From: Methanobacteriota archaeon
GTDB lineage: Archaea; Hydrothermarchaeota; Hydrothermarchaeia; Hydrothermarchaeales; BMS3B
DNA length: 48,541 nucleotides
Direction of reading: 5' to 3'
NCBI GenBank assembly: GCA_013152685.1
Contig: JAADFX010000130.1
Span: 13,913 to 62,453, forward strand
Shown here: positions 4,696-19,658 of the stretch, piece by piece
How the letters are laid out: every line of letters begins with the position of its first letter
Numbering within the stretch: position 1 is the first letter of the stretch
Notes under the pieces: generated by a model
Databases searched by the model: none
What the model saw: only the letters and a program-made list of their open reading frames with translations
What the model was told of the DNA's origin: nothing
Translations under genes and position numbers: made by a program

Positions 4696-5632
4696 GGGCG
4701 GGCACCTGGAGGGCGCGGTGGAGCATGTACACCCCAGCGAACACCAGCGCAGCGCCCGCGAGGCGGCGCAGCCAGAGCTCGGGGATGAACTTGGAGTACC
4801 TGGGCCCCAGGAGGGCGCCCAGCACGAGCCCCGGGGCAAGGTTCAGGAAGAGCAGCCAGTCGACGCGCATCCCGAGGAGGAGGTAGTTTGCGCAGCTCCA
4901 CAGGGAGGTGAAGAGCACCGCAGTCAGGGTGGTGCCCACCACCAGGTGCATGGGCAGGCGGTAAACGCTGGCGAGCAGGAAGAGGAACAGGTTTCCGCCG
5001 CCTATTCCAAAGAGGGAGGACACGAAGCCTATGGCAGCGCCGCCCAGCGCGAGCTTCACCGGAGAGAGGCTCAGCGTCTCCCCCGCGAAGGCAAAGGTGA
5101 ACCTGCGCGGAGAGGCGTGCACCGTGGAGTAGCCGCTCTCAGCAAGCTTCTCCCACTCGCCGGTGCGGCGGAGCTCCTTCACCAGGCCCTCGAAGCGCCT
5201 CACCATCCTCACCAGCGGACCCTCCCTGTGCCACTCCCCGCTGAAGGTGTGGGCAGCGATGTAGCTACCGGTGAGCAGGGCGATGGTCCCCATCACCGCC
5301 AGGTAGGCGCCCGAAAAGCTCCTGCCGAAGGCGAGCACCGCAGTGCGGGAGCCGAGAAGCACGCCGAGCAGCACCCCTGCTATGAGGAAGGCAGCGACGG
5401 GAAGCGCCACGCGCCTCTCCCTGAGGTAGGTGCGCAGCCCCACAAGCGCCGCCAGGGAGGTGGAGAGCACATTTATTGGCTGGAGCGCCGTGGTGACGCC
5501 TATGAGGGTCTGGAAGAGGCTGGTAAAGGCCGCACCCGAGACGCTGAGGGTGGAGAAGGCGGCGCCTATGAGAAAGCCCGCCGCCAGGGTTGCGAGGAAG
5601 CCAGCCTCTGCACCGGCGACGGGATAGTGCAT
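4688..5632 (-). CDS. TauE/SafE-family anion permease (DUF81)
   Basis: Two 4-TM halves rich in G/A/L, with GIGGG in the second half, separated by a charged loop of about 65 aa. Confidence 0.7.
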   Translation of the reverse strand: MHYPVAGAEAGFLATLAAGFLIGAAFSTLSVSGAAFTSLFQTLIGVTTALQPINVLSTSLAALVGLRTYLRERRVALPVAAFLIAGVLLGVLLGSRTAVLAFGRSFSGAYLAVMGTIALLTGSYIAAHTFSGEWHREGPLVRMVRRFEGLVKELRRTGEWEKLAESGYSTVHASPRRFTFAFAGETLSLSPVKLALGGAAIGFVSSLFGIGGGNLFLFLLASVYRLPMHLVVGTTLTAVLFTSLWSCANYLLLGMRVDWLLFLNLAPGLVLGALLGPRYSKFIPELWLRRLAGAALVFAGVYMLHRALQVPALS

Positions 5633-5641
5633 CGCCCCACC

Positions 5642-6535
5642 TCAGCCCAGGAGCTCCCTGCCCTTCTGCACGAAGAAGCTGACGAACTCCTCCCTCTCGG
5701 GATGCGCCGAGTCCCTGCGGCACACCACGTAGAGGTGCCTCTCAACCCTGAAGTCGGCAATCTCCCTCACCAGAATTTTTGAGTTCATGCTCCGCGCCGC
5801 CACCTCGGAGGTAATTGCCGCTCCCAGGCCTCGAGCCACCGCCTGGAGCTGGGAGAAGACGCTGTTCACCTCGGCGATGCTCCTTATCTCCTCCGGAGCT
5901 ATGCCGCGCCGCTTTAGCGCGTGGTGCAGGTAGCGCGTTATGCCAGAGCTCTCCGGAAGGGTCACCAGGGGGTGGCGCAGCACCTCCCGAATCGTGAGCT
6001 CGGGCACCTCCGCGAGGGGGTGCCCCCGGCTAAGCGCAAGCACCAGGCGGTCCCTTCCCAGGGGGGTGCACCCGTAGCCAGCGCCGAGCTCGCCCTCCAG
6101 GAAGCACGCCACGGCGATGTCCACCTCGCTGCTCTCCAGCAGCGCGGCGCACTCGGAGGAGTTCTTTATCAGCACCGCGAGCTCAAGCTCGGGCCTGAGG
6201 AGGCGGTACTCGCGCAGCACCTCAGGCAGGAGCACCACTCCAGGGATGTTTCCCAGCGCAATGCGAAGCGGCGGTGTTCTCCGCGCCGCCACCTCCCTCC
6301 TGGCCGCCTCCAGCCTCCTGAGGATGCCCCCAACCTCCTGCACCGCTATCCTGCCCTTCTCGGTGAGCTCCACTCCGGTTTTCTTCCTCTCCAGGAGCTT
6401 CTCCCCGAAGAACTCCTCCACAGCCCTAACGTGGGCGCTGACGGTGCTCACAGAGAGGCCCAGCGCCCTTGCGGCGTAGAGCAGGCTCCCGTGCTCCACC
6501 ACCTTCTGAAAGGTGTGCAGGTACTCCAGCCTCAT
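5642..6535 (-). CDS. LysR-family transcriptional regulator
   Basis: N-terminal wHTH LEYLHTFQKVVEHGSLLYAARALGLSVSTVSAHVRAVEEFFGEKLLER followed by a periplasmic-binding-protein-like effector domain. It is divergent from the multihaem cytochrome gene. Confidence 0.85.
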   Translation of the reverse strand: MRLEYLHTFQKVVEHGSLLYAARALGLSVSTVSAHVRAVEEFFGEKLLERKKTGVELTEKGRIAVQEVGGILRRLEAARREVAARRTPPLRIALGNIPGVVLLPEVLREYRLLRPELELAVLIKNSSECAALLESSEVDIAVACFLEGELGAGYGCTPLGRDRLVLALSRGHPLAEVPELTIREVLRHPLVTLPESSGITRYLHHALKRRGIAPEEIRSIAEVNSVFSQLQAVARGLGAAITSEVAARSMNSKILVREIADFRVERHLYVVCRRDSAHPEREEFVSFFVQKGRELLG

Positions 6536-6566
6536 GGGCGTATATTCCCCCCGGCAGTATTTATAT

Positions 6567-6585
6567 TTTTCGGATTTTCAGAAAA
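6567..6585. promoter_or_regulatory. Dyad TTTTC-N9-GAAAA (T-N11-A-like) in the LysR/cytochrome divergent intergenic region
   Basis: TTTTCGGATTTTCAGAAAA, read directly. It lies between the LysR start (6535) and the cytochrome start (6661). The TATA-like ATTTATATA and the GGAGGTGG ribosome-binding site follow downstream. Confidence 0.25.
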
Positions 6586-6660
6586 ATTGGGCGTTTAATT
6601 CGTATTTTACAAAAGATTTATATACCTCCCGGCGGCAATTTCTCTTCGGAGGTGGTAAAC

Positions 6661-8541
6661 ATGAGGGCTGCAATAGGTGGGGCTGTGCTCCTGCTTGTGC
6701 TCCTCTTCCCGGTGTATGCAGACTCCTGCGTGGACTGCCACGGCAGCAGGGAGAAGATGGAGCAGCTGGGCTACCCGCAGTTCTACTTCCCCCTGGAGGA
6801 GGTGAGGGAGCAGACGGGCATGCCCGCCACCTGCGTGGACTGCCACCTGGGCAATCCCGAGGCAACTGACCTGGAGGAAGCCCACAGGGGCGTGCTCTCG
6901 GTGCAGGTGGTGAGCAAGAAGGCCTTCTCCCTGCTGGACAGGGAGAACCTGATGTCAGCGCTCACGCCCAACGGGAGCAGGCTCACCAGCATGTTGCCAA
7001 AGGACAGGAGGGTGAACACCCTCATATACCACGACCGCGAGCCAGAGCTTTTCACCTTCAACAGGAGCGCTGTGGAGAGGACCTGCGGAAAGTGCCACCC
7101 GCGCCAGGTGGAGGAGTTCGCCCGCACGGTGATGGGCTCTGTGAGGTACCAGAGCATGTACAGGAACTGGACCGACACCCAGCTCGGACCGCACAACTGC
7201 GGCCCCTGGTACCTGGACCACTGGGAGGAAATCGCCAGTGAGAGCAGCGCCAACTACACCTACGAGCAGGCGAGGATAAACCAGAAGGCGTGCAACAGGT
7301 GCCACGTCTCCTGCCTGGACTGCCACTACGCCCCCTTCGAGGGCGAGGGGGTGCACAGGTTTGAGCGCACGCCGTCGCCGGTGAGCTGCTACGGCGGTGG
7401 CAGGGGCTCAATATGCCACGCGGGACCAGAGGAGCGCCGCAGAGGTGCGGGCTACCTGGGTGCGGAGTTCTCGAAGCCTCCTGGAAGGGAGCCGGATGTG
7501 CACGTGAAGTACAACCTCACCTGCGTGGACTGCCATGACCCCCTCGCCAAGGGGGGCATGGGCGGCGTTGAGAGAGAAGCGAGCTGCACCACCTGCCACG
7601 GAGAGATTGCGGAGGCCGTGAGCTCGAGCGACCACGCCAGCGTCGCCTGCGAGTCCTGCCACATAAAGGATGTGGGCGGCTACCAGCTGACGGTGTGGGG
7701 TCCGGGAAAGGTCGCCGGTGTTGCAACGCCCTACAAGAAGTACAGGAACTACTACGGCGAGGCGCCCAATCCGATACTCATCAGAGATGCCTCCGGGAAG
7801 TGGATACCGGTGAAGCCCTTCCCCATGGTCACCGTGGGCGTGGCGAAGGAGGTGAAGGGCAAGCCCGGCCCGAGCTTCAGGAGGAACGGCTCCAGGGACG
7901 CCTTCGCGCTGGTGGGGACCTTCGACGGCCTGCCCGAGAACAACCTGGCTCTGCTCTGGTTCCAGATGGACAAGATGTCCCACGCCATAAGGAAAGAGGC
8001 CAGGGACTGCGAGAGCTGCCACGCCTCGACGGAGCAGGGATTCTACGCGAAGTGGAAGTTCACAGACCAGGGGGCGGAGCCCTTCGAGGGCGAGCACCGC
8101 ATCGTTGCCAACAGCTCTGGGCTATACGCCCTGGGGCTGAGGAACACCACGCCCATAGTCACAAAGAAGGGGTGGAGCATCGCAGACCTGGCGCCCTGGT
8201 ACTACCTGAGGGACAAGTTCTACGCCAGGGGCGACTACTCCCTGCCGGAGGTGGAGGAGGCGAAGTACGCCGCCGCCAGGGCTGAGGCGGAGAGCTTCCT
8301 GGAGGAGTACGCAGCGCTGGAGCAGAGGCTCTCCAGAGCAGGAGATGCGGAGAAGCTGGAAGAGCTGGAGAAGGTCAGGGCGATAGGTGTGCACAACCCG
8401 CAGGAGGGCATCCGCCTGCTGAAGGAGCTGGGAGCGGAGCCCGCTCCCAAGCCTGAGGAGCGCGGAGTGTGCGGCCCCACGGCGGTGGCGCTGCTCGCGG
8501 CGCTCACCCTGGCGCTGGGGCGGTGCCTCAGGAGGGCGTAG
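6661..8541 (+). CDS. Exported multihaem c-type cytochrome (9 CxxCH plus one possible CX8CH) with CGP-CTERM-like anchor
   Basis: GGAGGTGG lies 6 nt upstream of ATG 6661. Signal peptide MRAAIGGAVLLLVLLFPVYA. Haem sites are CVDCH x3, CGKCH, CNRCH, CLDCH, CTTCH and CESCH x2. Many N-x-S/T sequons are present. A coiled-coil segment precedes GVCGPTAVALLAALTLALGRCLRRA. The part of the track ORF upstream of 6661 overlaps lysR. Confidence 0.85.
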   Translation: MRAAIGGAVLLLVLLFPVYADSCVDCHGSREKMEQLGYPQFYFPLEEVREQTGMPATCVDCHLGNPEATDLEEAHRGVLSVQVVSKKAFSLLDRENLMSALTPNGSRLTSMLPKDRRVNTLIYHDREPELFTFNRSAVERTCGKCHPRQVEEFARTVMGSVRYQSMYRNWTDTQLGPHNCGPWYLDHWEEIASESSANYTYEQARINQKACNRCHVSCLDCHYAPFEGEGVHRFERTPSPVSCYGGGRGSICHAGPEERRRGAGYLGAEFSKPPGREPDVHVKYNLTCVDCHDPLAKGGMGGVEREASCTTCHGEIAEAVSSSDHASVACESCHIKDVGGYQLTVWGPGKVAGVATPYKKYRNYYGEAPNPILIRDASGKWIPVKPFPMVTVGVAKEVKGKPGPSFRRNGSRDAFALVGTFDGLPENNLALLWFQMDKMSHAIRKEARDCESCHASTEQGFYAKWKFTDQGAEPFEGEHRIVANSSGLYALGLRNTTPIVTKKGWSIADLAPWYYLRDKFYARGDYSLPEVEEAKYAAARAEAESFLEEYAALEQRLSRAGDAEKLEELEKVRAIGVHNPQEGIRLLKELGAEPAPKPEERGVCGPTAVALLAALTLALGRCLRRA

Positions 8542-8556
8542 CCCTCCCTTTATTTT

Positions 8557-9546
8557 TTAATCCAGCTCATCCAGCACGTAGTCCTCCCACTTCCGCTCCC
8601 CCAGCACAATCTCAAGCTCCTGGGGGGTGAGCATGGGCCTGGGAAAGCGCGGCGCATCCTCAATTGTCACGCGGGGGCAGGAGGTGTTCACCAGCGCATC
8701 CAGGTGGCGGAAGTAAATCAGGTTCTCTGGCGTGACCTCGGCGAGGTGAATCAGGTGGGCCTCCTTTTTCATCTCCCGGAGCTTCTGCTTTATCCGCCTC
8801 GCGAGCGCAAGGCGCCTCTGGCCGGGCTTCTCCCCCACGATTATGCCGAAGCGCTGCGCATCCCTCGCCTTCGCCATGGTGGCGAAGCGCTGCCTCAGGA
8901 AGCGCTCCCTCTTCTCCTCCATGTTCCTCACCTCCCCCTGAAGCAGGTCGAAGGCGTACACCGGCTTTCCCGTGGCAAGCGCAACGCCTAGGGGATGGAA
9001 GTCCCCGCTTCCCAGGTAGGCGAAGCAGTCCACCCTGCTGGAGATGCTCTTTGCGCAGGCGAAGGAGCAGCCCAGCACCTGCCCGGGGTAGCGCGCCCTT
9101 CCCCTCGCCCCGCCTATGTGCACCTCGAAGCCCCTCGCCTCGAGAAACCTCCTCGCCCTCTCGAGGATGTGCACGTGCTGCACTGTCGTAATTAAACCCA
9201 CCCTCTTCTCCAGCAGGTGGAGGTGCTCCTCCAGCAGGGGCTCCGCCTCCTGGGGGAGGCGCACCTCGATGTAGTGCACGGGTATGCGGGTGCTCTTTAA
9301 AAGCTGCGCGTGCCCGAAGTGGAACACCGCCTCTGCGCCGAGCTGTGCCGCCGGTTCGTCGGCGAGGTCGCAGGCGCCGTAGCAGGGGTTCGCCGAGATG
9401 AGCACCTCCGCTCCGGTGAGCTCCTCCACTTGGGAGGCCACCTCCGTGGCGTGGTCCCTAAGCCCCTCGGGAAACTGCAGGCTCACCCTGGAGTAGCCCT
9501 CCCTTTTTATAATCTCAGCGATGCGCTCAACCTCAAAGTTGTACAT
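8557..9546 (-). CDS. dph2: Diphthamide biosynthesis enzyme Dph2 (2-(3-amino-3-carboxypropyl)histidine synthase)
   Basis: The typical archaeal Dph2 N-terminus (YNFEVERIAEIIKREGYSRVSLQFPEGL) and conserved Cys residues (PCYGACD, SCP). Confidence 0.88.
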   Translation of the reverse strand: MYNFEVERIAEIIKREGYSRVSLQFPEGLRDHATEVASQVEELTGAEVLISANPCYGACDLADEPAAQLGAEAVFHFGHAQLLKSTRIPVHYIEVRLPQEAEPLLEEHLHLLEKRVGLITTVQHVHILERARRFLEARGFEVHIGGARGRARYPGQVLGCSFACAKSISSRVDCFAYLGSGDFHPLGVALATGKPVYAFDLLQGEVRNMEEKRERFLRQRFATMAKARDAQRFGIIVGEKPGQRRLALARRIKQKLREMKKEAHLIHLAEVTPENLIYFRHLDALVNTSCPRVTIEDAPRFPRPMLTPQELEIVLGERKWEDYVLDELD

Positions 9547-9702
9547 CTCAAGCAGCGCACAGGCTAACGTCGGGATGTTTCGAAATCCGTAAGTAAAATT
9601 TTATATTTGTGAAGAGGCACACAAAATTCCGGGGAGCGGTGGTGGAGCACGAGCCCAGCGGTCACCTCCTCTACTCCACCTCCTTTTTTGCATCTGCTCC
9701 CC

Positions 9703-9709
9703 AAAAAAA
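9703..9709 (-). terminator. Oligo-T tract (T7) right after the SHOCT gene stop
   Basis: The minus strand reads TAG-C-TTTTTTT immediately after the stop at 9711-9713. This is an archaeal oligo-T termination signal at the end of the co-oriented hao-downstream gene string. Confidence 0.35.
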
Positions 9710-9710
9710 G

Positions 9711-10040
9711 CTACTTCTCGCCAAGAATCTCGCGCTTCATCTCCAGGTACTCCTCCCGGGTGATCTCTCCCCTCGCAAGACGCCTGTTGAGGATGTCTAT
9801 GGCGCTCTCCTCCCTCTCCTCCCTGCCCGTGAGGAGCAGGTACAGGAAGGCGAGCACCAGCACCCAGAAGGCTATGCCGAAGATGCTGAAGCCGTAGCCG
9901 AAGGCGTAGCGGCGGTGCATCTCCATCATGCCTCCCCACGCCTGGCACAGGCCCCAGGGGTGACCCGTCTCATAGAGCACAGTAAGGAGCAGCAGAAAGC
10001 CCAGCACGGCGAAGGTTATGTAGCCCAGGTACCTCTTCAT
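9711..10040 (-). CDS. SHOCT-domain membrane protein
   Basis: The ATG at 10040 is preceded by GGTGA; the track start at 10076 is a TTG. Two TM helices are followed by the C-terminal ILNRRLARGEITREEYLEMKREIL SHOCT motif. Confidence 0.65.
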   Translation of the reverse strand: MKRYLGYITFAVLGFLLLLTVLYETGHPWGLCQAWGGMMEMHRRYAFGYGFSIFGIAFWVLVLAFLYLLLTGREEREESAIDILNRRLARGEITREEYLEMKREILGEK

Positions 10041-10094
10041 CACCCTGTCACCATCCCTACTTTCTCCCTCTTCCAACTTAATACTATCCCACGG

Positions 10095-10574
10095 CTACTT
10101 CTTTATCCAGTCCGCAATAAACACCTTGTAGGTCCTGCCGAGCCTCTCCCGGGTTATTATCCCCTTCTTCTCCAGATTGAGCAGCAGGGCGCTCACCTTC
10201 GACTTTGAGAAGCCTGTGCGGAAGCGCAGCGAGTCCTGGGTGATGCCCTCATTCTCCCTTATTATCTCTATGAGAAGCGCCTCATCCTCACTCAGGGCGC
10301 GCTCAAGTATGGCGTAGCTCTTGCTGTCCTGCTTCTTCTCCTCCTCGGGCTTTGCCCACATGTAGAATAGGGCGCCAGCGGCTATGCCGGCAATAAAGGA
10401 CAGGGTGAGGCGGTACCTGAGCAGGGAAAGGCTCTCCTCGGTGAGCAGCAGCGAGGCCAGGGAATCCAGGCCAAAGTACACGATGAACACCAGCAGAAAG
10501 GTCGCCAGAACGCGCTCATTCTCCGTGGCCGGCTTTTTTATCTTCATGGTGGTATCCTTATTGGCGCCGGTCAT
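10095..10574 (-). CDS. Membrane-anchored winged-helix (MarR/TrmB-like) DNA-binding protein
   Basis: Two N-terminal TM helices followed by EALLIEIIRENEGITQDSLRFRTGFSKSKVSALLLNLEKKGIITRERLGRTYKV, a wHTH. Confidence 0.6.
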   Translation of the reverse strand: MTGANKDTTMKIKKPATENERVLATFLLVFIVYFGLDSLASLLLTEESLSLLRYRLTLSFIAGIAAGALFYMWAKPEEEKKQDSKSYAILERALSEDEALLIEIIRENEGITQDSLRFRTGFSKSKVSALLLNLEKKGIITRERLGRTYKVFIADWIKK

Positions 10575-10583
10575 ATAAGAAGC

Positions 10584-11774
10584 CTATGGCAGCACTCCGG
10601 CACGCCTAATTATCCCCAGCATCTCCAGGCTGAAGGCCGAAGCCGAGAGCAGGAGCAGAAGGCCGCCCACCATGGAGACGGCGCTCTGGGACAGGTACAT
10701 CCCCAGGGCGAGCAGCACAACACCCGCATTGTAGGCGTAGAAAATCCAGCGAGAGCGCTCCGCGGAGAAGAGCTCCTTGAAGGAGGAGGGCGCCCTCTCC
10801 CGCTCCCTGGGCAGGATCCGCGCCCAAGCAAGCGTCGGGATCACGTGGTACAGCCCCCCGATTACCGTCTGGCCGACAAAGCCCAGGGCGGCCAGGTGGG
10901 CGTGGACTGAGGAGAGCCCCGCCTCAGGAAAGGCTGCCTGTACCAGGCCCAGGAGGAGAACCAGCAGCAGGTAGCCCAGGGCAGCCAGAAAGAACCTGGA
11001 CTCCACGGGCTCTGGCTTGAAGCTCATCCTGGTGGGCGCCGTGTAGCTCTTTACCATGTCGTAGGTGAAGAGGGCGGCTGCTGAGAGGAGGACCGCGCCG
11101 GAGAGGAGGAGAAGCGCCTCAGAGAGCCCGAAGCCGAGCACCATCCCCGCCGCCGAGATGAGGGTGAGGTAGAACACGTAGTCCACCCAGCGCCGGTTGT
11201 ATATGTCCTTGACCACCAGCATGGGGAGCATCCAGGACATGGCGCCGAAGATTATCAGGGTCACCCCGCCCACCAGGGAGAGGTGCACATGGGAAGGGCG
11301 GTAGCCGTAGAGGGCGGGGTTCAGGAGGATCAAAAACCCAAGCGTCGCCCCGAGGCTAAGAAGGACGCTGGCTGCCGAGTAGAACTTGAAGGCATAGTTT
11401 TCCCCCCTGCGCTCCGCGATGGTCGCCAGGATGTTGTAGGTGAAGAGGTAGAAGCACACCAGCAGGAGCAGTGCCCCAGCCGCCGCCACCAGGCGGTGGT
11501 GGGGGTAGCTCAGCGAAAACACCACCAGGCCGGAGTTGAAAAGCCAGAAACTCGCCGAGGCGGCGCGCTTGCTGTGGAGCTCAGCGCCGGTGAGGGTGGG
11601 AACCTGCTGGTACATGGTGGCAATTATAACGCCGCAGACGAACCCCACCAGGGCGAGGTGCACGTGCACAGGCGTGGGAACCGAGAGGCCGGCCAATCCG
11701 GCTAACCCGAGGAGGAGCGCCACAACAAAATACACCAGCGCCGCTGCCAGAAACCGCAGTATTACGGCCGACAT
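10584..11774 (-). CDS. Polytopic (about 12 TM) membrane protein with thrice-repeated H-x-H-L...P-x-L motif; function unknown, possibly haem/metal-binding
   Basis: The 396-aa ORF carries repeats PVHVHLALVGFVCGVIIATMYQQVPTL, PSHVHLSLVGGVTLIIFGAMSWMLPML and SVHAHLAALGFVGQTVIGGLYHVIPTL about 125-135 aa apart. It is co-oriented 200 nt downstream of the HAO-like gene. The CDS is confident; the function is not. Confidence 0.6.
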   Translation of the reverse strand: MSAVILRFLAAALVYFVVALLLGLAGLAGLSVPTPVHVHLALVGFVCGVIIATMYQQVPTLTGAELHSKRAASASFWLFNSGLVVFSLSYPHHRLVAAAGALLLLVCFYLFTYNILATIAERRGENYAFKFYSAASVLLSLGATLGFLILLNPALYGYRPSHVHLSLVGGVTLIIFGAMSWMLPMLVVKDIYNRRWVDYVFYLTLISAAGMVLGFGLSEALLLLSGAVLLSAAALFTYDMVKSYTAPTRMSFKPEPVESRFFLAALGYLLLVLLLGLVQAAFPEAGLSSVHAHLAALGFVGQTVIGGLYHVIPTLAWARILPRERERAPSSFKELFSAERSRWIFYAYNAGVVLLALGMYLSQSAVSMVGGLLLLLSASAFSLEMLGIIRRAGVLP

Positions 11775-11778
11775 AACC

Positions 11779-11916
11779 CTAACCGTGAATCAGCATCGGC
11801 AGGCAGCGGGTGCAGATGTAGTGCTTATCCTGCCGGTGGTAGTACTTTATGAGGGGAACCTCATCCTCACTCCGCTGGCAGTTTTCACACTTCTTCATGC
11901 TTATGAAGATAGCCAT
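11779..11916 (-). CDS. Small zinc-ribbon protein (45 aa; 39 aa from the second ATG), not in the ORF track
   Basis: Reverse translation gives MAIFISMKKCENCQRSEDEVPLIKYYHRQDKHYICTRCLPMLIHG* (CxxC-x24-CxxC). The stop lies 4 nt before the start of the downstream membrane-protein gene. Confidence 0.4.
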   Translation of the reverse strand: MAIFISMKKCENCQRSEDEVPLIKYYHRQDKHYICTRCLPMLIHG

Positions 11917-11948
11917 AGGCGAATAAAAGAGTTTTTGCGAACATGTTC

Positions 11949-11959
11949 AAAAAGAAAAA
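11949..11959 (-). terminator. T-rich tract (TTTTTCTTTTT) after the HAO-like gene stop
   Basis: The minus strand reads TGA-GCTTCCACCC-TTTTTCTTTTT. This is a possible partial terminator between hao and the downstream genes. Confidence 0.3.
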
Positions 11960-11969
11960 GGGTGGAAGC

Positions 11970-13460
11970 TCAGGGCTTCCTCCTTCTCCTGAGCAGCAGC
12001 GCATACCCTGCCACCGGCAGCAGCGCAAGGGCAGCCACTGACGTGGGACCGCACACGCCCTTCTGCTTCTCCAGCTTGGCAACGCGCTCCTCGAGCTCCT
12101 TCTTCTCCCGCTCCATCTCGAGCCACTCTTCCATCATGTTGAGCTTGTCCATCAGCGCATCCACTGCACCGTTCCAGTGGGTCCAGTCGGGCCCCATCAT
12201 GCTGGCGCCCATCCTCCACCTTCTGCCGTCGTGGTGCCAGATGTAGTAGTACATGATCTCCGGAATCTCGTCTATCGGGTTGGACTTGTCTATGAGTCCC
12301 TCCTCGTAGGCGGCGTTGAGGAGCTGCTCCGTGTACTCGTACACCCTGTTGTAGTCCTCCACCACCTTGTCGAAGCTCTCGAAGTAGCCGTCAACCCAGT
12401 CGCTGGCGTGGCACACCCTGCACACCTTCTTCATCTCTGCCCTGCCCCGCTTTGCCTGCTCCAAATCGGGCTTCTGCTCTCCCAGGGGCACCTTGCTGGC
12501 GTCGTCCCACTGGGGCGTCGACTTCTTGGGCTGAAGCTCCCAGTAGAGCCTGGCTCCAACGTCGTGGGTGCTCTCAACCACTCCGCCAAAGCCGGACATG
12601 TGGCAGGTGGCGCAGGTGGGTGCCGCTATGTCCTCGGGACCCCACTGACCAGGGGGCACGTCCCAGTTCCAGTCTTCGCCGCTGCTCGCGTAGATGTTGC
12701 CGTGCTTGCTCTCCTCGTAGATCTCTATCTGCGGATGGTCAGGGCCGAGATGGCACTGGCCGCAGGTCTCGGGCTTCCTCGCTTCGGCTATGCTGAACCT
12801 GTGGCGAGTGTGGCAGGCGGAGCAGGTTCCCATGCTGCCGTCGGGGTTGATCCTGCCTATGCCATTGTTGGGCCAGCCGTCCACCAGATTGCCGTTCTTT
12901 GATATCACGTAGCTTCCGTGGCACTCCAGGCAGCCCAGCACCTGGTTCTCCTGGTGGTAGTTCTCGTCATCCAGGAGGCCGATGCGCTTCAGGGCACCGC
13001 TGTCCGGGAACAGCGGCGTGAGCTGCCCCCTTATGAAGTCCCTGGGGTTGTTCTCAATGGCGGTCTCCAGCTTCAGCGGGTCCTTGCCCTGCTTCACCAT
13101 CTCCCTGTACCAGGGCTTCAGCGGCCCTATGAAGGCTGCCCAGGCGTGCTTGCTCCTTGAAAACTCCGCAACCTGCTTTGGATGACAGCTCTCGCAGTAG
13201 CGCGGTGATACCACTGCCGTGACCCTGTAGCCCATGTGCTCAAAGCCGGAGGGGTCGTCATCCTTGGCGAGGTGGCAAACATAACACTTCACTCCCACCT
13301 TGCTGTGCTTACTCTCCTCCCACTGCTTCACTATCCCTGGGGTTACGGTGTCGTGACAGCTCAGACAGGGCGCCCCTGGCTCTCTGAATTCCTGTGCGTT
13401 AGCTGTACTGAGCAACATCGCTGCAGCTATCGCAAAAATTAAGAGATGCTTTAACCTCAT
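11970..13460 (-). CDS. hao: HAO-family (hydroxylamine oxidoreductase-like) octahaem c-type cytochrome with CGP-CTERM-like anchor
   Basis: Signal peptide MRLKHLLIFAIAAAMLLSTANA. Eight CxxCH sites are present: CLSCH, CYVCH, CESCH, CLECH, CSACH, CGQCH, CATCH and CRVCH. HAO/HDH-like blocks include VKQWEESKHSKVGVKCYVCH and YIWHHDGRRWRMGASMMGPDWTHWNG. The C-terminus has a coiled coil followed by KGVCGPTSVAALALLPVAGYALLLRRRRKP. Confidence 0.85.
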   Translation of the reverse strand: MRLKHLLIFAIAAAMLLSTANAQEFREPGAPCLSCHDTVTPGIVKQWEESKHSKVGVKCYVCHLAKDDDPSGFEHMGYRVTAVVSPRYCESCHPKQVAEFSRSKHAWAAFIGPLKPWYREMVKQGKDPLKLETAIENNPRDFIRGQLTPLFPDSGALKRIGLLDDENYHQENQVLGCLECHGSYVISKNGNLVDGWPNNGIGRINPDGSMGTCSACHTRHRFSIAEARKPETCGQCHLGPDHPQIEIYEESKHGNIYASSGEDWNWDVPPGQWGPEDIAAPTCATCHMSGFGGVVESTHDVGARLYWELQPKKSTPQWDDASKVPLGEQKPDLEQAKRGRAEMKKVCRVCHASDWVDGYFESFDKVVEDYNRVYEYTEQLLNAAYEEGLIDKSNPIDEIPEIMYYYIWHHDGRRWRMGASMMGPDWTHWNGAVDALMDKLNMMEEWLEMEREKKELEERVAKLEKQKGVCGPTSVAALALLPVAGYALLLRRRRKP

Positions 13461-13503
13461 ATTCTCACCCAGTTAACAATCTCCCACTCATATATTAAAA
13501 AGG

Positions 13504-13544
13504 TTTTTTTAAAAAGTGATTTAAATAAAGATTGTAGTGTTAAA
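13504..13544 (-). promoter_or_regulatory. hao upstream composite element TTTAACACTA-N19-TTTTTAAAAAAA (gene orientation)
   Basis: Read directly. The plus strand is TTTTTTTAAAAA-GTGATTTAAATAAAGATTG-TAGTGTTAAA. N19 contains the TATA-like TATTTAAAT. The proximal end lies 43 nt from the hao ATG. The same outer blocks occur with the same spacing upstream of napA. Confidence 0.55.
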
Positions 13545-13551
13545 ATTTAGT

Positions 13552-14652
13552 TTAGGTTGATAGGCGCACCCTGTGCCTCAATTCGGGAAGCGGTGACGAG
13601 GCGGCGTACACCGTACCGGCGCAACCCTCGAGCTCCTCCTCCCTTTTAGCCGTGAGCACGCGGGGCTTTAATTCCTCATCCCTGCATGTGAGGACAACTT
13701 CATCCACAACCCCTGAATTTAAAGAAAATTTAAGCAGCGCCGTAACTGCACCGCCGTCCTGCCCTCCGCCACGGGTTGCCCTGGCAGCCAGGATGCGCCT
13801 GTACCTGCCCAGGTGCTCCCTCCGTAGCTCCCCCAGCTCCAGCTGCTCCTCCAGCGCCCTCAGAGGCAGCGCTGTTCTGGTGCAGGCAGCGTAGCACAGG
13901 CTGCAGTCCTGGGGGCACCTCCCCCTCAGCCTGGGCATGCCGTTCCTCATCTCCAGCTCCGAACATGCGGCGCTGCACGCACCGCACGCGTCGCACAGAC
14001 CGGAGACCACGATATCCCTCCACAGCTCCCGGAAGCCCCTGCCCTCGGTCCTGCTCAGCGCCTCCTCCAGCGAGCCCAGATCTCTGGTGGCGTGGTGGGG
14101 CACCTCATCCCCCTGCTCCACCCTGCTCTGTATCCTCCTGAGGCTCCTCTCAAACTTGGCGCGGGCGACCCGCTGGAGCTCCTCCACGCCCGCCTCGCCC
14201 ACCTCCATCAGCTCCAGAAGGCCCGCCTCCTCAGCACCATGCAGCACCTCCTCGCCCCGGGGGGTGCGCACAATCAGGGTGGTCCACCCCTCCGGGGAGC
14301 CGGTGCTACCTGCGCTAATGTCCGCCAGCTCTGAGGTGAAATCCAGGCACATCCTGCACGCCATCTTCACGTACTTCCTCATCTCCCCCAGGGGAAACTC
14401 CAGCTCCATGCCCCGGGCTGAAACCCTCACCCGGTCCCCGGAAATTCTCATCCGGGCCACCTCCTCTGGCGCCACGCCCCGCGCCTCCAGGAACCCTGCC
14501 ATGCAGGGGTAGCTCCAGTTGCCCATGCAGAAGAGGCCCACCACCAGCTCCACCCGCTCCACCAGCCTCCTCCCCAGCAGCCTGCCCAGCGCCTGCAGCT
14601 TTCGCAGCCCCTGCACCTGACACGGCGTCCCCACGAAGCCCAGCGCTCTCAC
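13552..14652 (-). CDS. FrhB/FdhB-family (F420-reducing hydrogenase beta-like) flavo-FeS protein, circularly permuted, with internal 2x[4Fe-4S] segment
   Basis: The N-terminus starts in the FrhB C-domain (GTPCQVQGLRKL, LFCMGNW, CRMCLDFTSELADISAGSTGSPEGWTTLIVRT). Next come CDACGACSAAC and CPQDCSLCYAAC. The FrhB N-domain (GGGQDGGAVTALL...AGTVYAASSP) comes last. The ATGA overlap with napD indicates translational coupling. Confidence 0.75.
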   Translation of the reverse strand: MRALGFVGTPCQVQGLRKLQALGRLLGRRLVERVELVVGLFCMGNWSYPCMAGFLEARGVAPEEVARMRISGDRVRVSARGMELEFPLGEMRKYVKMACRMCLDFTSELADISAGSTGSPEGWTTLIVRTPRGEEVLHGAEEAGLLELMEVGEAGVEELQRVARAKFERSLRRIQSRVEQGDEVPHHATRDLGSLEEALSRTEGRGFRELWRDIVVSGLCDACGACSAACSELEMRNGMPRLRGRCPQDCSLCYAACTRTALPLRALEEQLELGELRREHLGRYRRILAARATRGGGQDGGAVTALLKFSLNSGVVDEVVLTCRDEELKPRVLTAKREEELEGCAGTVYAASSPLPELRHRVRLST

Positions 14653-14891
14653 TCCACCTCATCCTCCACGTTCAGGTACACCAGCTGGAAGTCCACCACG
14701 TCCTCCCACTTCTCTATCTCCTCCGAGAGCTTCTTGAGCTCCTTTGTGCTTCTCCCCTCCATCACCACTGCAATTCCCCGGGTGCCCCTCCCCTTAACCT
14801 CGACTCCCGGGAGGTTCCTGAGGTTCCTCTCCACCTCGTCCTCCCTCCCGGGCACCGGCACAATTACCGCTCCAGATATGGGCAAATCCAT
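14649..14891 (-). CDS. napD: NapD-like Tat-proofreading chaperone
   Basis: 80 aa from the ATG at 14891, which overlaps the napH TGA within GGAGGTGATGG. The sequence ISGAVIVPVPGREDEVERNLRNLPGVEVKG...GIAVVMEGRSTKELKKLSEEIEKWEDVVDFQLVY matches the NapD ferredoxin-like pattern. The longer track ORF overlaps napH. Confidence 0.72.
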   Translation of the reverse strand: MDLPISGAVIVPVPGREDEVERNLRNLPGVEVKGRGTRGIAVVMEGRSTKELKKLSEEIEKWEDVVDFQLVYLNVEDEVE

Positions 14892-15736
14892 CACCTCCTT
14901 ACCGCATAGTACAGGGCGCCCGTTGGGCAGGCGTCCCTGCACAGTCCACAATTATCACAGGTTCTATCATTAAAATCCTTATCTATACCGAGCTCCACAG
15001 GGCGCAGACCATAGGGGCAGGCGATGTTGCACTCACCGCAGAAGATGCAGCGCTCCATCCTCTTGGAGATTCTCACCACCCTCTTCGCCCCCAGCAGCGA
15101 CAGGAAGCCTCCCGCCGGGCACAGGGAGCGGCACCAGATCCGCCTGGCGGCGAGCGCCTCGAGCAGGACCACGCCCGTCAGGAGGAGAAGGCCGCCGTAG
15201 CTCGGGGCGCCGTAGGTGAGGACATAGAAGATCTCCCTTCCCAGCACGTGGGGCAGGTCGAAGGCGGACACCACCGGAGTGGCAAAAAAGAAGCTCAGGA
15301 GCAGCGCAAACCCCAGCAGGTGGTAGCGGTAGTCCGCCACCCTGAGGCTGAGCCTCACGCCGCGCGAGCTGAGGAAGCTCCCAAGCCTCTGGTTGAGCTC
15401 CAGCAGGAACCCGGCGGGGCAGATCCAGGAGCAGAAGACCCTGCCCAGGAGGAGGGTAATCGCCAGGGGCAGAAGCGCCGCCGCCAGCAGCGGCAGGTAA
15501 ACCACCTTCGCCGCCAGCATCGCCTCCAGCGCCGCGAGGGGGTGGGTAACGGTGAAGCCGTAGAAGCTGAAGCTCCAGGTGTCGCCCCACACGCGGGACA
15601 CCCTGGGCGGCGGGAGCTCCCCCATGGCTATCCGGGATGGTGCCCACTCTATCGGATTCTGGGAGTACAGGGGGACGGCGACCAGCACCGCCAGGACCAG
15701 CACCTGAAACACGCGCCTCAACCTGCGGACTTCCAT
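14891..15736 (-). CDS. napH: NapH-type membrane FeS quinol dehydrogenase subunit
   Basis: The start MEVRRLRRVFQ lies at 15736, just after the napG stop. Four TM helices are present. CxxxCP motifs are CSWICPAG and CRSLCPAGG. C-terminal ferredoxin motifs are CIFCGECNIACP and CDNCGLCRDACP. Confidence 0.85.
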   Translation of the reverse strand: MEVRRLRRVFQVLVLAVLVAVPLYSQNPIEWAPSRIAMGELPPPRVSRVWGDTWSFSFYGFTVTHPLAALEAMLAAKVVYLPLLAAALLPLAITLLLGRVFCSWICPAGFLLELNQRLGSFLSSRGVRLSLRVADYRYHLLGFALLLSFFFATPVVSAFDLPHVLGREIFYVLTYGAPSYGGLLLLTGVVLLEALAARRIWCRSLCPAGGFLSLLGAKRVVRISKRMERCIFCGECNIACPYGLRPVELGIDKDFNDRTCDNCGLCRDACPTGALYYAVRR

Positions 15737-15737
15737 G

Positions 15738-16478
15738 CTAGACCCTCTTAACCACCCGCACCGCGGGAAGCTCAACACCCGGCCCCGCCCTGCCTATCAC
15801 ATTCCTCACCATGGCGGCGTACCTCTCCTCGAAGTAGGTGAGCTTCCTCCCCGGCTCCATCGTCGCCCTGGCAATCCTCTCATTCACCGGGCAGACGTAG
15901 TTGCACATCCCGCATCCGACGCAGTGCCTCTCATTCACGTGGGGCCTTATTCCCACGGCACCCTCTATCACCTCATTCGGCGGGTAGGCGAGCATGGCGT
16001 CATCCCTGAGGGGGCAGTTGTAGTAGCACTCCCCGCAGGAGTCGTACTGCCACGCCAGGCACAGGTCGCGGTTTAGCACAGAAACGCCCATCTTCAGCTC
16101 CTCTGGAAGTGCCAGGAGGGTGTCCCTGTCGTTCCTTATCTTCCTGAGGGCGCCCGTGGGGCACGCCTCGCCGCACAGCAGATACTCGCTCAGGGGCTCG
16201 TCCCTGCCCTCACTGGTTCGCCTGAGGCAGAGGTAGCAGGGGGTCTCCACGGGGTCAATGTAGGGCGTCGCCACCTTCGCGCCCGCGCTGATATCGAAGA
16301 ACTTTATGGAGTCGTAGGGGCACGCCTCACCGCACTTTCCACACCTGATGCAGCGGGCCAGAAAATCACGCGCCGCCCCCGGGGGGCGTATTGCCGGGGC
16401 GTCGCCTTCTCCGAGCCCTATGCCAGCCAGGCCGATGAGCACCACACCCTTGAGGAAGCTCCTGCGCTTAAGCTTCAC
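15738..16478 (-). CDS. napG: NapG-type Tat-exported poly-ferredoxin
   Basis: Tat signal KRRSFLKGVVLIGLAG. The sequence contains IRPPGA...F...CIRCGKCGEACP plus three further 4Fe-4S motifs (CGEACPTGA, CGECYYNCP, CVGCGMCNYVCP). It overlaps the upstream gene by 4 nt. Confidence 0.85.
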   Translation of the reverse strand: MKLKRRSFLKGVVLIGLAGIGLGEGDAPAIRPPGAARDFLARCIRCGKCGEACPYDSIKFFDISAGAKVATPYIDPVETPCYLCLRRTSEGRDEPLSEYLLCGEACPTGALRKIRNDRDTLLALPEELKMGVSVLNRDLCLAWQYDSCGECYYNCPLRDDAMLAYPPNEVIEGAVGIRPHVNERHCVGCGMCNYVCPVNERIARATMEPGRKLTYFEERYAAMVRNVIGRAGPGVELPAVRVVKRV

Positions 16479-16906
16479 CAGCCACCCTCCCTCTCAATCT
16501 CAATAATCGCAACCTCGTAGTGGCGCCCCTTTATCTGGTAGGGCACCACCACCCTGCCCCGCACCACCACCTCGGAGCCCTGCATCGGCATTGTTCCCCG
16601 GGTGATGACCCATATCTCACCCGTGCCGTCGTTCAGCAGATAGGGCTGCTCATCCACAAACTCAAAGGCAAGCCCCGGGAGTGCGGTGCCCCGCAGCACC
16701 ACCTCCATGCCCTCGTAGGCCTCCGGGTTGTCCAGAATATCGGCGACCCTGACACCGCCGCCCGCATCACCCGCCGGCGCCGGCTCTGGTTGTGGCGTCG
16801 CTACGGGCGCCTCCACCGCCTCCCCCACAGCCTCAACCACCGCTTCCTCCTTCTCAACGCAGCCGGCAAGAACCAGAAGTATCAGCAGCACTGCATAGAG
16901 CCGCAT
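16475..16906 (-). CDS. Predicted lipoprotein with A/P/E-rich linker and OB-fold-like C-terminal domain (unknown function) in the napB position
   Basis: Lipobox LLVLAGC, a low-complexity linker and then a beta-rich domain (MEVVLRGTA...GEIWVITRG...VVVRGRVVVPYQIKGRHYEVAIIEIE). There is no CxxCH, so it is not NapB. The stop overlaps the napG start. Confidence 0.55.
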   Translation of the reverse strand: MRLYAVLLILLVLAGCVEKEEAVVEAVGEAVEAPVATPQPEPAPAGDAGGGVRVADILDNPEAYEGMEVVLRGTALPGLAFEFVDEQPYLLNDGTGEIWVITRGTMPMQGSEVVVRGRVVVPYQIKGRHYEVAIIEIEREGGW

Positions 16907-16993
16907 GCAACCACCGCCGTTTTTAATTTAAGTATGTGATGCCAATAATTTATAAAGATAACTTTAAAATAAAATTCAGTCCCCCTATTTTTT

Positions 16994-17003
16994 AAAAGAA
17001 AAG
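16994..17003 (-). terminator. T-rich tract (CTTTTCTTTT) after the napA stop
   Basis: The minus strand after TAG reads GCCACCTCCCAACTTTTCTTTTAAAAAA. The 109-nt AT-rich spacer before the next gene also holds TATA-like CTTTATAAA, so napA and the downstream genes may be separate or attenuated transcription units. Confidence 0.3.
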
Positions 17004-17015
17004 TTGGGAGGTGGC

Positions 17016-19493
17016 CTACGCCTTGACCACCTTTATCTTGCACACCTTGTAGTCAGGCTCCGCCGCCTTTGACCAGCTCTCGGGCACGTCTATGGTGAGG
17101 TCGTTGATCAGCTTGGTCTCATCGAACCAGGGCACGAAGACCATGCCCGGCTGAGCGCGCTCTGTAACCCAGGCGGGGAGGACGATGCTGCCGCGCGGTG
17201 ATATCAGCTTTATCTTCTCACCGCTCTTGACCCCCAGCTTCCTGGCATCGCTCGGGTGTATCTCCACGTAGGCGGCCGGGTTCAGCTCACGCAGCAGGCG
17301 CACGCGCATGGTCATTGTTCCGGTGTGCCAGTGCTCTATAACCCTGCCGGTGTTCAGCACGAAGGGATAGCTGGCGTCCGGCATCTCGTAGTCCAGCTTC
17401 GCCGCGAGAGCGCGGATTACCGCCTTGTCCTTGGTGTTCTTGAGCTTGTGGCCTCCGTAGTAGTTTATCGGCCCTGGATAGCCGTGCTCCTCCATGTGCT
17501 GGTCGTACAGCGTGACGTAGCCCGTGGCGTACCTCTTCTTGTCCCTTCCGAACACCCTTATCGCGTACTCCCTGGAGATGTAGCGCTTGTTGCTTCCGCG
17601 GTTGTCAAACTCGGTGCTCGGGCAGGGCCACTGGACGCCGCCCGCGTGGGCCTTGAGCTTCTCGTAGGTGGCGCCGTAGAGGTCAACATCCTGTCCCCTG
17701 GTGAGCACCCTGTACTCGTTCCACGCGGCCTCCTCTGGCGTCATCTCGCCCTTCTTAACCCTGGGGTCGTCGTAGAAGCCCAGGCCGTAGACCTCTATGG
17801 TGTCCAGCACCTTGAGCGGGTCCTGCCTGTCCCTGATGGCATACTTAACCTTCCTTCCCAGCTTCTGGGCTATCCTCCTGGCCACCTCATTTATCTGCCA
17901 GAAGTCGGGCTTTGCCTCTCCCGGCGGGTCCACCAGCTTGTTTATAAACTGGCTCCTCCTGTCTGTCTGCCCCATGACGCCCTCCTTCTCCACCCACATG
18001 GCGCTGGGCAGTATGACCGTCGCCACCTCAGTGGTCTTGTTGGGGTAGATGTCGCTCACCACAGTGAAGGCCTTCATCATGGCCTCCGCATAGCGGTCGC
18101 AGTTGGGCAGGCTCTGCGCCGGGTTGGTGGTGTTTATCCATATCGCCTTTATCTCGCCCTTCTCCAGGCGCATGAACATGTTAACCGCCGGGCCCGTGGG
18201 CTTCTTGGGCATCTGCTCAACGGGCACGCCCCAGACCTCTGCCACCTCCTGCCTGTGCTTGGGATTCGCCACCGCCCTGTGCCCCGGCAGGATGTGGGTG
18301 AGTCCGCCCTGCTCGCGAGTGCCGCCGCAGGCGTTGGGCTGCCCCGTGAGGCTGAGGGAGTCACAGCCGGGCTTGCCTATCTTGCCTGTGAGCAGGTGCA
18401 GGTTGTGAACCTGGCAGTTGAGCTCCACGCCCTGGGTGCGCTGGTTCAAACCCATGGTCCACATGCTGAGGGCAGTGTAGCCGCGCCGCCCAAACCACCG
18501 CGCCGCCAGGCGTATGTCCTCAGCGGGCACCCCGGTTATGTCCTCCACCTTCTCCGGGGTGTAGTCCTTGAGGAACTCCCTGAAGCCGTCCAGGTCCATC
18601 TCCTCGCCGGCCGGACCAAGGCCCACCCTGAAGGTGCAGTACTTGAGGTGCTCGTAGTCCACCATGTCCTCCTCTATTATCACATACGCCATGGCGTTCA
18701 GCAGGTACATGTCGGTACCCGGCTTGAACTTCAGGTGGAGGTCCGCATACCTCGCTGTCGGAGTTGTGCGCGGGTCGGCCACTATAACCCTCACCCTGTC
18801 CGGATAGGCGCTCTTCCTGTCTATCACCCTGCGGAAGAGCATCGGGTGCTGCTCCGCCATGTTTGAGCCTATGATGAAGATGGTGTCCGCCAGGTCTATG
18901 TCGTCGTAGCTTCCCGCAGGCTCATCTGCGCCGAAGGTGTTGAGGTAGCCTCCAACCGCAGAAGCCATGCACAGCCTGGGGTTGCCCTCCACGTTGGCGG
19001 TGCCAATAAGCCCCTTGAAGAGCTTGTTGGCGGCGTAGGCTTCCTGGGTTGTGTTCTGTCCAGAGCCGTACCACGCGACGCTGTCGGGACCGTACTCCTT
19101 GATGTACTTGGCAAAGGTGTCGGCAATCAGCTCCAGCGCCTCGTCCCAGCTGACCTCCTTGTAGCTTCCATCCGGCTGACGCACCATGGGCTTGGTCAGC
19201 CTCTCCTTCCCGCCGCCACCGTACATTATGTGGGGCAGCGAGTACCCCTTCATGCAGAGTCTGCCGAAGTTTATCGGGGAATCCGCATCGCCCTTTACTG
19301 CCACCACCTTACCGTCACGCACGCCCACAAGTACAGTGCAGCCGGTGCCGCAGAACCTGCACTGGGCGCGCCCGAAGGTTATTCCCCCATCTCCCGGCGC
19401 CGCCATCGCGGGGGCACTCATGCCGGCTGCAAGCATCGCTGCAGTGGCGGCTGAAGCCTTTATGAACTCACGTCTGCTCATGCTTATTCCCAT
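17016..19493 (-). CDS. napA: Periplasmic-type nitrate reductase catalytic subunit NapA (Mo-bisPGD, Tat-exported)
   Basis: GGAGGTGA lies 5 nt before ATG 19493. Tat signal SRREFIKASAATAAMLAAGMSAPAMA. The N-terminal [4Fe-4S] motif is CRFCGTGCTVLV...C. The Mo-ligand region NPRLCMASAVGGYLNTFG resembles NapA. The napG/H/D context supports the call. Confidence 0.9.
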   Translation of the reverse strand: MGISMSRREFIKASAATAAMLAAGMSAPAMAAPGDGGITFGRAQCRFCGTGCTVLVGVRDGKVVAVKGDADSPINFGRLCMKGYSLPHIMYGGGGKERLTKPMVRQPDGSYKEVSWDEALELIADTFAKYIKEYGPDSVAWYGSGQNTTQEAYAANKLFKGLIGTANVEGNPRLCMASAVGGYLNTFGADEPAGSYDDIDLADTIFIIGSNMAEQHPMLFRRVIDRKSAYPDRVRVIVADPRTTPTARYADLHLKFKPGTDMYLLNAMAYVIIEEDMVDYEHLKYCTFRVGLGPAGEEMDLDGFREFLKDYTPEKVEDITGVPAEDIRLAARWFGRRGYTALSMWTMGLNQRTQGVELNCQVHNLHLLTGKIGKPGCDSLSLTGQPNACGGTREQGGLTHILPGHRAVANPKHRQEVAEVWGVPVEQMPKKPTGPAVNMFMRLEKGEIKAIWINTTNPAQSLPNCDRYAEAMMKAFTVVSDIYPNKTTEVATVILPSAMWVEKEGVMGQTDRRSQFINKLVDPPGEAKPDFWQINEVARRIAQKLGRKVKYAIRDRQDPLKVLDTIEVYGLGFYDDPRVKKGEMTPEEAAWNEYRVLTRGQDVDLYGATYEKLKAHAGGVQWPCPSTEFDNRGSNKRYISREYAIRVFGRDKKRYATGYVTLYDQHMEEHGYPGPINYYGGHKLKNTKDKAVIRALAAKLDYEMPDASYPFVLNTGRVIEHWHTGTMTMRVRLLRELNPAAYVEIHPSDARKLGVKSGEKIKLISPRGSIVLPAWVTERAQPGMVFVPWFDETKLINDLTIDVPESWSKAAEPDYKVCKIKVVKA

Positions 19494-19546
19494 ACTTTCA
19501 CCTCCGCCTCTGTATAATATTCATGGATTTTTAGGTTAATAAAACC

Positions 19547-19587
19547 TTTTTTTAAAAATTTTATTTATATCCCTCCATAGTGTTAAA
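19547..19587 (-). promoter_or_regulatory. napA upstream composite element TTTAACACTA-N19-TTTTTAAAAAAA (gene orientation)
   Basis: The plus strand is TTTTTTTAAAAA-TTTTATTTATATCCCTCCA-TAGTGTTAAA. N19 holds the TATA-like ATATAAATA. The proximal end lies 53 nt from the napA ATG. The outer blocks and the spacing are identical to the hao element. Confidence 0.55.
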
Positions 19588-19658
19588 TTAATTTTTATAT
19601 ACCCCCTCTTCGTGAACCTTTACGATTTAATTGGATATTTAATTTCAAATGATTATAT

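Follow-up and report, generated by a model that had tools for sequence, protein, structure and literature searches.

The cytochrome genes and their C-termini

The DNA analysed here (the window) is a stretch of 48,541 nucleotides from a Methanobacteriota archaeon (contig JAADFX010000130.1, positions 13,913 to 62,453, forward strand). It encodes two multihaem c-type cytochromes, a nonahaem protein (MHC-A) and an octahaem HAO-like protein, which carry the same kind of C-terminal tail. An initial annotation of the window had reported this shared ending, a GVCGPT motif followed by a transmembrane helix and a basic tail, and translation of both genes confirmed it. The features of the two genes are listed below.

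6661–8541, + strand: MHC-A, nonahaem c-type cytochrome of 626 residues, first tail carrier (CxxCH count, Pfam)
6661–6720, + strand: predicted Sec signal peptide of MHC-A, MRAAIGGAVLLLVLLFPVYA (sequence reading; cleavage site inferred)
8257–8463, + strand: spacer of MHC-A, residues 533–601, three helices followed by a Pro-rich disordered linker (AlphaFold model)
8464–8541, + strand: CGP-type sorting tail of MHC-A, GVCGPTAVALLAALTLALGRCLRRA, from Gly602, with stop codon (translation; TIGR04288, 14.4 bits)
11970–13460, − strand: octahaem HAO-like cytochrome of 496 residues, second tail carrier (CxxCH count, PF13447)
13395–13460, − strand: predicted Sec signal peptide of the HAO-like protein, MRLKHLLIFAIAAAMLLSTANA (sequence reading; cleavage site inferred)
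12063–12188, − strand: single long helical spacer of the HAO-like protein, residues 425–466 (AlphaFold model)
11970–12059, − strand: CGP-type sorting tail of the HAO-like protein, GVCGPTSVAALALLPVAGYALLLRRRRKP, with stop codon (translation; TIGR04288, 13.0 bits)

In both tails, GVCGPT leads into a hydrophobic helix that is followed by an Arg-rich end. The translation of 6661–8541 (+) ends in ...PEERGVCGPTAVALLAALTLALGRCLRRA and that of 11970–13460 (−) in ...KQKGVCGPTSVAALALLPVAGYALLLRRRRKP, with 23 residues from the Cys to the end of the protein in MHC-A and 27 in the HAO-like protein. Among the 407 open reading frames of the window (stop-to-stop, at least 60 residues), these two are the only ones with Cys-Gly-Pro within the last 45 residues. 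By a naive estimate, the chance that a second protein has the same hexapeptide close to its C-terminus is approximately 2e-5. At the DNA level the tails differ at synonymous positions and so do not stem from a recent duplication.

MHC-A has nine CxxCH motifs and an N-terminal signal peptide, and its Pfam matches are Cytochrome_C7 and the MtrC/MtrF II–IV domain. A second cysteine of its tail, Cys622, lies within the basic cluster. No solved relatives were found by a PDB sequence search, and Foldseek gave no meaningful match of the model to the PDB (best E value 0.13). The family is common in Geobacter-like bacteria, and the gene is transcribed divergently from that of a LysR-type regulator (5642–6535, −). 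The HAO-like protein has eight CxxCH motifs and an N-terminal signal peptide; together with a PF13447 score of 108.2 bits (gathering score 21.9), the motif count places it in the HAO family. Its closest relative in the PDB is 4qo5 (E value 1e-56), and 6h5l and 1fgj are also related. The tail cysteine, Cys470, is the only cysteine of this protein that is not part of a haem motif.

AlphaFold models of both cytochromes (mean predicted local distance difference test score, pLDDT, of approximately 69) place a helix break at the Gly-Val-Cys-Gly motif. The HAO-like model has a 42-residue helix (residues 425–466, with pLDDT > 90 over residues 441–460) that is interrupted at Lys-Gly-Val-Cys-Gly, and the next helix spans residues 472–493. 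Since HAO-family enzymes are known as trimers, the long helix would form a trimeric coiled coil. In MHC-A, helices at residues 533–560, 563–578 and 580–589 are followed by a disordered Pro-rich linker (590–607; pLDDT < 50 over residues 596–606) and a helix at 608–625. The coiled-coil spacers initially proposed for both proteins are thus consistent with the single helix of the HAO-like protein but not with the three shorter helices and disordered linker of MHC-A.

Scores against curated sorting-signal models

The tails were compared with TIGR04288 (CGP_CTERM), which has 20 positions and a curated cut-off of 21 bits. The MHC-A and HAO-like tails scored 14.4 and 13.0 bits, respectively, both below the cut-off that defines membership of CGP-CTERM. 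Ten related tails scored 7.6–20.9 bits and three further tails scored 8.6–14.1 bits. TIGR04288 was the top model for nine of 12 tails and among the top three for all 12, and it always aligned from the Cys (model position 1); in the three further tails it ranked first for one only. NCBIfam release 20, which includes many newer C-terminal sorting models, contained none that fits the tails better. TIGR04288 is therefore the closest curated model.

The HAO-like tail scored 17.9 bits against MYXO-CTERM (TIGR03901), short of the cut-off of 20, and the MHC-A tail did not match this model. GC_trans_RRR gave 17.0 and 21.1 bits for two tails (cut-off 15.85). The PGF and PEF models matched none of the tails scanned (E values up to 10). 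Two HAO homologues (P0119 and P0120) had the appearance of PGF-CTERM proteins, which no model confirmed.

The resemblance to CGP-CTERM noted in the initial annotation accordingly holds for the tripartite layout with Cys-Gly-Pro and for the ranking of the models, but does not extend to a score above the cut-off. The tails are a variant of the CGP-CTERM kind and not a member; the scores, a length greater than that of the model and different linkers set them apart.

Distribution and consensus of the tail

A profile built from nine tails was searched with hmmsearch against 1.84 billion representative proteins (E ≤ 1e-3). The search returned 20 protein clusters, and every match lay at the extreme C-terminus, ending at most seven residues from the end of the protein. 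MHC-A itself (P0148) and its orthologues were matched. The cargo families are unrelated: HAO-like, NrfA-like and other multihaem cytochromes, class I cytochromes, a surface protein of 1,748 residues, NosD β-helix giants, YVTN and PQQ β-propellers, rhodanese proteins, and LamG and pre-peptidase-like proteins. Thr-Pro linkers are present in some of the cargo proteins. Three fragments were the only matches when a tail profile of 45 residues was used in a word-indexed homology search.

The DNA of 185,579 GTDB species-representative genomes was also scanned for the pattern G-[VI]-C-G-P-T-x5-A-x-L-P. This gave 39 matches, against approximately 35 expected by chance by our rough estimate. All 23 matches in archaeal metagenome-assembled genomes (MAGs) are genuine C-terminal tails, and none of the 16 bacterial matches is. 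The hosts of 13 of the 23 true tails are named Candidatus Hydrothermarchaeota or Pyrohabitans, and those of the other ten are named only 'archaeon' or 'Methanobacteriota archaeon'. None of the 23 hosts is named Thermococcales, although the pattern was built from the present variant and may miss Thermococcales tails. Candidatus Pyrohabitans jungbluthii JdFR-16 and Pyrohabitans sp. JdFR-17 have at least four tails each by this strict pattern. The tail-bearing genomes vary in GC content between 38 and 61%.

Two or three cargo genes lie close together on several contigs, and at one locus (L007/L008) three tail proteins are encoded within 21 kb. The carriers there (5600–21296) are a YVTN propeller, a PEGA protein and a rhodanese; their neighbours are NnrS/COX1-like, ScdA/DUF1858, NosL-Fer4, DsbD/CcdA and thioredoxin genes, and the gene content suggests a redox and N-oxide module of exported proteins.

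The consensus of 58 distinct genuine tails is G-[IV]-C-G-P-T-A-[IVL]-A-[AL]-[LI]-A-x-L-P-L-x-x-Y-x-x-x-R-R-R. Gly1, Cys3, Gly4 and Pro5 do not vary, where Cys-Gly-Pro was required for collection; Thr6, Ala12, Leu14 and Pro15 are nearly invariant and were not required. These near-fixed residues are more than a plain membrane anchor needs. Judged from sequence, the tail is a lineage-wide sorting signal and not a coincidence, because it is always found at the extreme C-terminus, is carried by unrelated families and, among the species genomes scanned, is confined to archaeal MAGs. The initial annotation had also considered that only the two window proteins might carry the tail, in which case it could be a plain anchor; many unrelated exported proteins of the lineage were found to carry it.

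Host lineage and homologues

The genes for GGGP synthase, Nre, TFX and Dph2 identify the window as archaeal. Its closest named relative is Candidatus Pyrohabitans sp. (phylum Hydrothermarchaeota), the host of an MHC-A orthologue of 78% identity; the GC content is 61% for the window and approximately 50% for Pyrohabitans. The source is probably a Hydrothermarchaeota member with a higher GC content than Pyrohabitans, and it is not one of the Thermococcales. All six archaeal orthologues of MHC-A (46–79% identity) have CGP tails, whereas none of 114 bacterial homologues (42–49% identity), which come from Geobacter-like, Desulfuromonadales and Nitrospirota organisms, has a hydrophobic C-terminal segment.

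Seven HAO-like homologues (P0002, P0004, P0006, P0007, P0051, P0077 and P0084) have the same tail. Most bacterial homologues lack an anchor. Other HAO homologues have LPXTG-type signals with scores above the curated cut-offs, and P0003, P0005 and P0029 have plain helices that contain no Cys. The tail of P0015 scored 16.5 bits against LPXTG_anchor (cut-off 15.9), and that of P0097 scored 28.2 bits against Microco_LAVTG (cut-off 27) and 21.1 bits against LPXTG_anchor. In P0010, P0013, P0015 and P0097, either collagen-like GPQGPPGP repeats with a helix or LPXTG/LAVTG-type sortase signals were observed. The variety of these C-terminal devices indicates that anchoring arose independently several times within the family.

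The tail is thus present only on the archaeal versions of two otherwise bacterial cytochrome families. As the remaining homologues have other anchors or none, the type of anchor tracks the host lineage and not the enzyme family, as expected if each host adds its own sorting signal to imported periplasmic enzymes.

The HAO-like gene sits in a nitrate/nitrite respiration cluster (10584–22772). This cluster contains a NapA-like molybdoenzyme with a twin-arginine translocation (TAT) signal (17016–19493), two Fe–S proteins, NapD, an FrhB-like protein, a COX1/NnrS-like membrane protein (10584–11774), an LVIVD protein and a Tll0287-type histidine kinase with a response regulator. The gene order LVIVD protein, kinase, regulator and cytochrome is kept in JdFR-16 and S141. 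Publications on Hydrothermarchaeota report NapADGH and multihaem cytochromes and no sorting signal (PMC6775978, PMC6759336), and one of them found no NirS/K nitrite reductase (PMC6759336). The HAO-like and NrfA-like cytochromes may fill this missing role.

Search for a processing enzyme

The initial annotation had suggested a search for archaeosortase-like or other candidate processing genes. Pfam scans of all 46 window genes detected no CPBP protein (PF02517), archaeosortase or rhomboid, and the precomputed Pfam annotation beside nine cargo loci contained no CPBP protein, archaeosortase, rhomboid or other candidate protease. Two crude tests, one with regular expressions for CPBP motifs and one with tblastn and a hand-written CPBP consensus, detected no CPBP gene in approximately 488 kb that included the window.

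In four Hydrothermarchaeota genomes, a transglutaminase-core-like gene of approximately 250 residues lies directly downstream of a tail-bearing nitrite-reductase-type cytochrome (L001 11600–12370, L005 11913–12656, L042 4206–4967 and L030 288–1062). The cytochrome is HAO-like in JdFR-16 and NrfA-like in JdFR-17 and S141. The product is a signal-anchored putative Cys protease with the motif GSGDCED...DHVGAAV. It was rejected as a sorting enzyme, as the gene is absent from the window and from the other cargo loci.

Relation to known sorting systems

CGP-CTERM has been described as exclusive to Thermococcales (Haft, 2023; doi 10.1101/2023.06.07.544157). The initial annotation stated that no sorting enzyme had been assigned to it, which is outdated: archaeomyxosortase MrtA (NF040590), an Rce1-like CPBP protease, is predicted to act on CGP-CTERM after lipidation of the Cys, and this assignment is computational only (Haft, 2023). 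All four known Cys-containing tripartite signals have been linked to CPBP proteases (Haft, 2023). Like the signals of the CGP-CTERM/MrtA system, the tails described here occur in archaea, are carried by several unrelated exported cargo proteins of a genome, and place an invariant Cys-Gly-Pro directly before a hydrophobic helix and an Arg-rich stretch that closes the protein. They differ in the extended G-[IV]-C-G-P-T motif, in the conserved Ala12, Leu14-Pro15 and Tyr19, and in length (21–27 residues rather than 20). The Thermococcales signal, at approximately 20 residues, is the shortest Cys-containing one, and Thr (26%) and Ser (15%) are frequent upstream of it (Haft, 2023), whereas Glu, Ala, Lys and Pro are the frequent residues of the linkers here. 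Where the host is named, it belongs to Hydrothermarchaeota and not to Thermococcales, and multihaem cytochromes are among the cargo.

In the literature searched, CGP-CTERM is tied to Thermococcales throughout, and multihaem cytochromes are not described as its cargo. The initial view that no such tail had been described on respiratory multihaem cytochromes therefore stands for signals of the CGP type. The general idea has been published, since PGF- and PEF-CTERM signals are known on multihaem cytochromes of anaerobic methanotrophic archaea (ANME; PMC5244752, PMC9012536). These signals and their archaeosortases ArtA and ArtC are likewise archaeal and tripartite, with a predicted covalent linkage of exported proteins, small multihaem cytochromes among them, to membrane lipid and a proposed role in keeping cytochromes at the surface, but they have a Pro-Gly-Phe signature without Cys and the enzyme is a Cys-protease transpeptidase.

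The MYXO-CTERM, JDVT-CTERM and Synerg-CTERM signals processed by myxosortases are likewise tripartite with an invariant Cys, for which lipidation and then cleavage beyond the Cys have been proposed; they are bacterial, have other signatures and direct cargo to the outer membrane via type II secretion. The LPXTG-type signals on HAO homologues such as P0015 and P0097 are also host-specific C-terminal surface anchors on the same enzyme family, but depend on sortase transpeptidation to the cell wall, with another motif and other chemistry. In eukaryotic CAAX processing, a lipid is attached to a Cys close to the C-terminus, after which Rce1, a glutamic intramembrane protease, cuts off the residues that follow. 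This served as the template for the mechanism proposed below. Only three residues follow the Cys in CAAX proteins and the reaction takes place on the cytoplasmic side, whereas 20–26 residues including the whole helix follow it here and the Cys would lie on the outer side.

Interpretation of the tails

We consider it fairly likely that the tails are copies of a lineage-specific archaeal sorting signal, one variant within the CGP-CTERM class of tripartite signals with a Cys, and that they act as a processed lipid anchor. The tail probably tethers bacterially acquired enzymes to the cell surface. That the tail is lipidated and cleaved, and by which kind of enzyme, is proposed by analogy with related systems. 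The cytochromes would be exported via Sec, with haem attached outside the cell, and would be retained in the cytoplasmic membrane by the C-terminal helix and Arg cluster. The invariant Cys at the outer boundary of the membrane would then be lipidated, and the helix would be removed by a membrane-embedded protease, by analogy an MrtA-type, Rce1-like member of the CPBP family. The mature cytochrome would stand beneath the S-layer, its helical or Pro-rich stalk tethered by the lipid to the outward-facing side of the membrane.

A number of observations weigh against this interpretation. Every tail scored below the TIGR04288 cut-off of 21 bits (range 7.6–20.9 bits). The distance from the Cys to the end is 21–27 residues over the 58 tails (mode 24), compared with a model of 20 residues. 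The 30 residues upstream of the tails contain 16% Glu, 15% Ala, 13% Lys, 12% Pro, 7% Thr and 4% Ser. The MHC-A tail has Thr at motif position 15, where Pro is usual. The closest HAO-like orthologue (P0001; 87% identity; L004 3–1490, from a 'Euryarchaeota archaeon' MAG) has Lys-Val-Cys-Ala-Pro-Ser in place of Gly-Val-Cys-Gly-Pro-Thr before the same ALLP...RRRR helix, which indicates that the Gly of Cys-Gly-Pro is not strictly invariant in the lineage. The enzyme searches of the window, the cargo loci and the approximately 488 kb yielded no candidate protease. To our knowledge, all signals of the CGP type rest on computation and not on experiment.

The same tails could be plain C-terminal transmembrane anchors that keep their helix, with GxCGPT...LP...Y conserved for packing, helix capping, oligomerization or S-layer contact. 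C-terminal membrane anchors are present on many archaeal cytochromes c (Kletzin et al., 2015; PMC4429474), the HAO homologues P0003, P0005 and P0029 make do with plain helices without a Cys, and the tails score below the curated CGP-CTERM cut-off. However, a plain anchor has no need of Gly, Cys, Gly and Pro in fixed register, with Thr6, Ala12, Leu14 and Pro15 nearly fixed, over 58 tails, and would not be confined to one archaeal MAG group among 185,579 species genomes; moreover, the layout matches that of processed Cys-containing sorting signals (Haft, 2023). We regard an unprocessed anchor as unlikely, and retain it at that level because no processing enzyme was found in the sequence examined. 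An improbable alternative is that the tail is processed by another enzyme, such as an archaeosortase/exosortase-family transpeptidase, a rhomboid-type protease or a new one, and that the resemblance to CGP-CTERM is convergent. The sub-threshold scores, longer helix, different linkers and different phylum leave room for an independent system, some tails score near or above other cut-offs (MYXO-CTERM and GC_trans_RRR), and the MrtA assignment is itself computational. On the other hand, each of the four Cys-containing tripartite signals known so far has been connected with CPBP proteases (Haft, 2023), TIGR04288 is the most consistent match and aligns from the Cys, and no archaeosortase gene was seen beside the cargo genes.

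That the shared ending arose by chance, or by recent local duplication or gene conversion of the two window genes, and has no signal function was conceivable while the tail was seen on two window proteins only. The synonymous differences between the tails and the chance estimate of approximately 2e-5 argue against this explanation, and the dozens of other proteins with the tail, in genomes of 38 to 61% GC, refute it; its probability is negligible.

On the reading of the tails as a processed lipid anchor, a wider proposal can be put forward tentatively, and we would not yet rate it as likely. Hydrothermarchaeota may possess their own uncatalogued 'GxCGPT-CTERM' system, with a dedicated membrane protease and a Cys-lipidating enzyme. 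Fusion to the tail and lipid anchoring under the S-layer would have enabled these cells, which are without an outer membrane, to take up soluble bacterial periplasmic respiratory enzymes (HAO-like, NrfA-like and Geobacter-type multihaem cytochromes).

The phylum and the cargo (respiratory multihaem cytochromes) are both new for a Cys-Gly-Pro signal, and processing is plausible. Signals of this kind are extended from Thermococcales, the sole order reported, to a second and never-cultured archaeal phylum, the tails of which provide a second, independent data set for testing the computational link to Rce1-like proteases. The proposal also gives a testable account of how nitrite- or metal-reducing multihaem cytochromes would be held at the surface of Hydrothermarchaeota without an outer membrane, and surface anchoring bears on the nitrate respiration and extracellular electron transfer proposed for these organisms. 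As the curated models miss the tails, their carriers will be annotated as simple membrane proteins, which a lineage-specific model would correct.

Other features of the window

In the FrhB-like protein (13552–14652, −) the order of the Pfam domains is reversed, with FrhB_FdhB_C at residues 2–151 and FrhB_FdhB_N at residues 288–357; this could be a circular permutation or the result of a mis-set start codon. The open reading frame at 45196–46827 (+) joins an AlaX-like tRNA-editing region (the C-terminal part of tRNA-synt_2c and tRNA_SAD) to a lysyl-phosphatidylglycerol-synthase transmembrane region, an architecture that is unusual in an archaeon. It is followed by a GT2 glycosyltransferase and then by a YfhO-like membrane protein.

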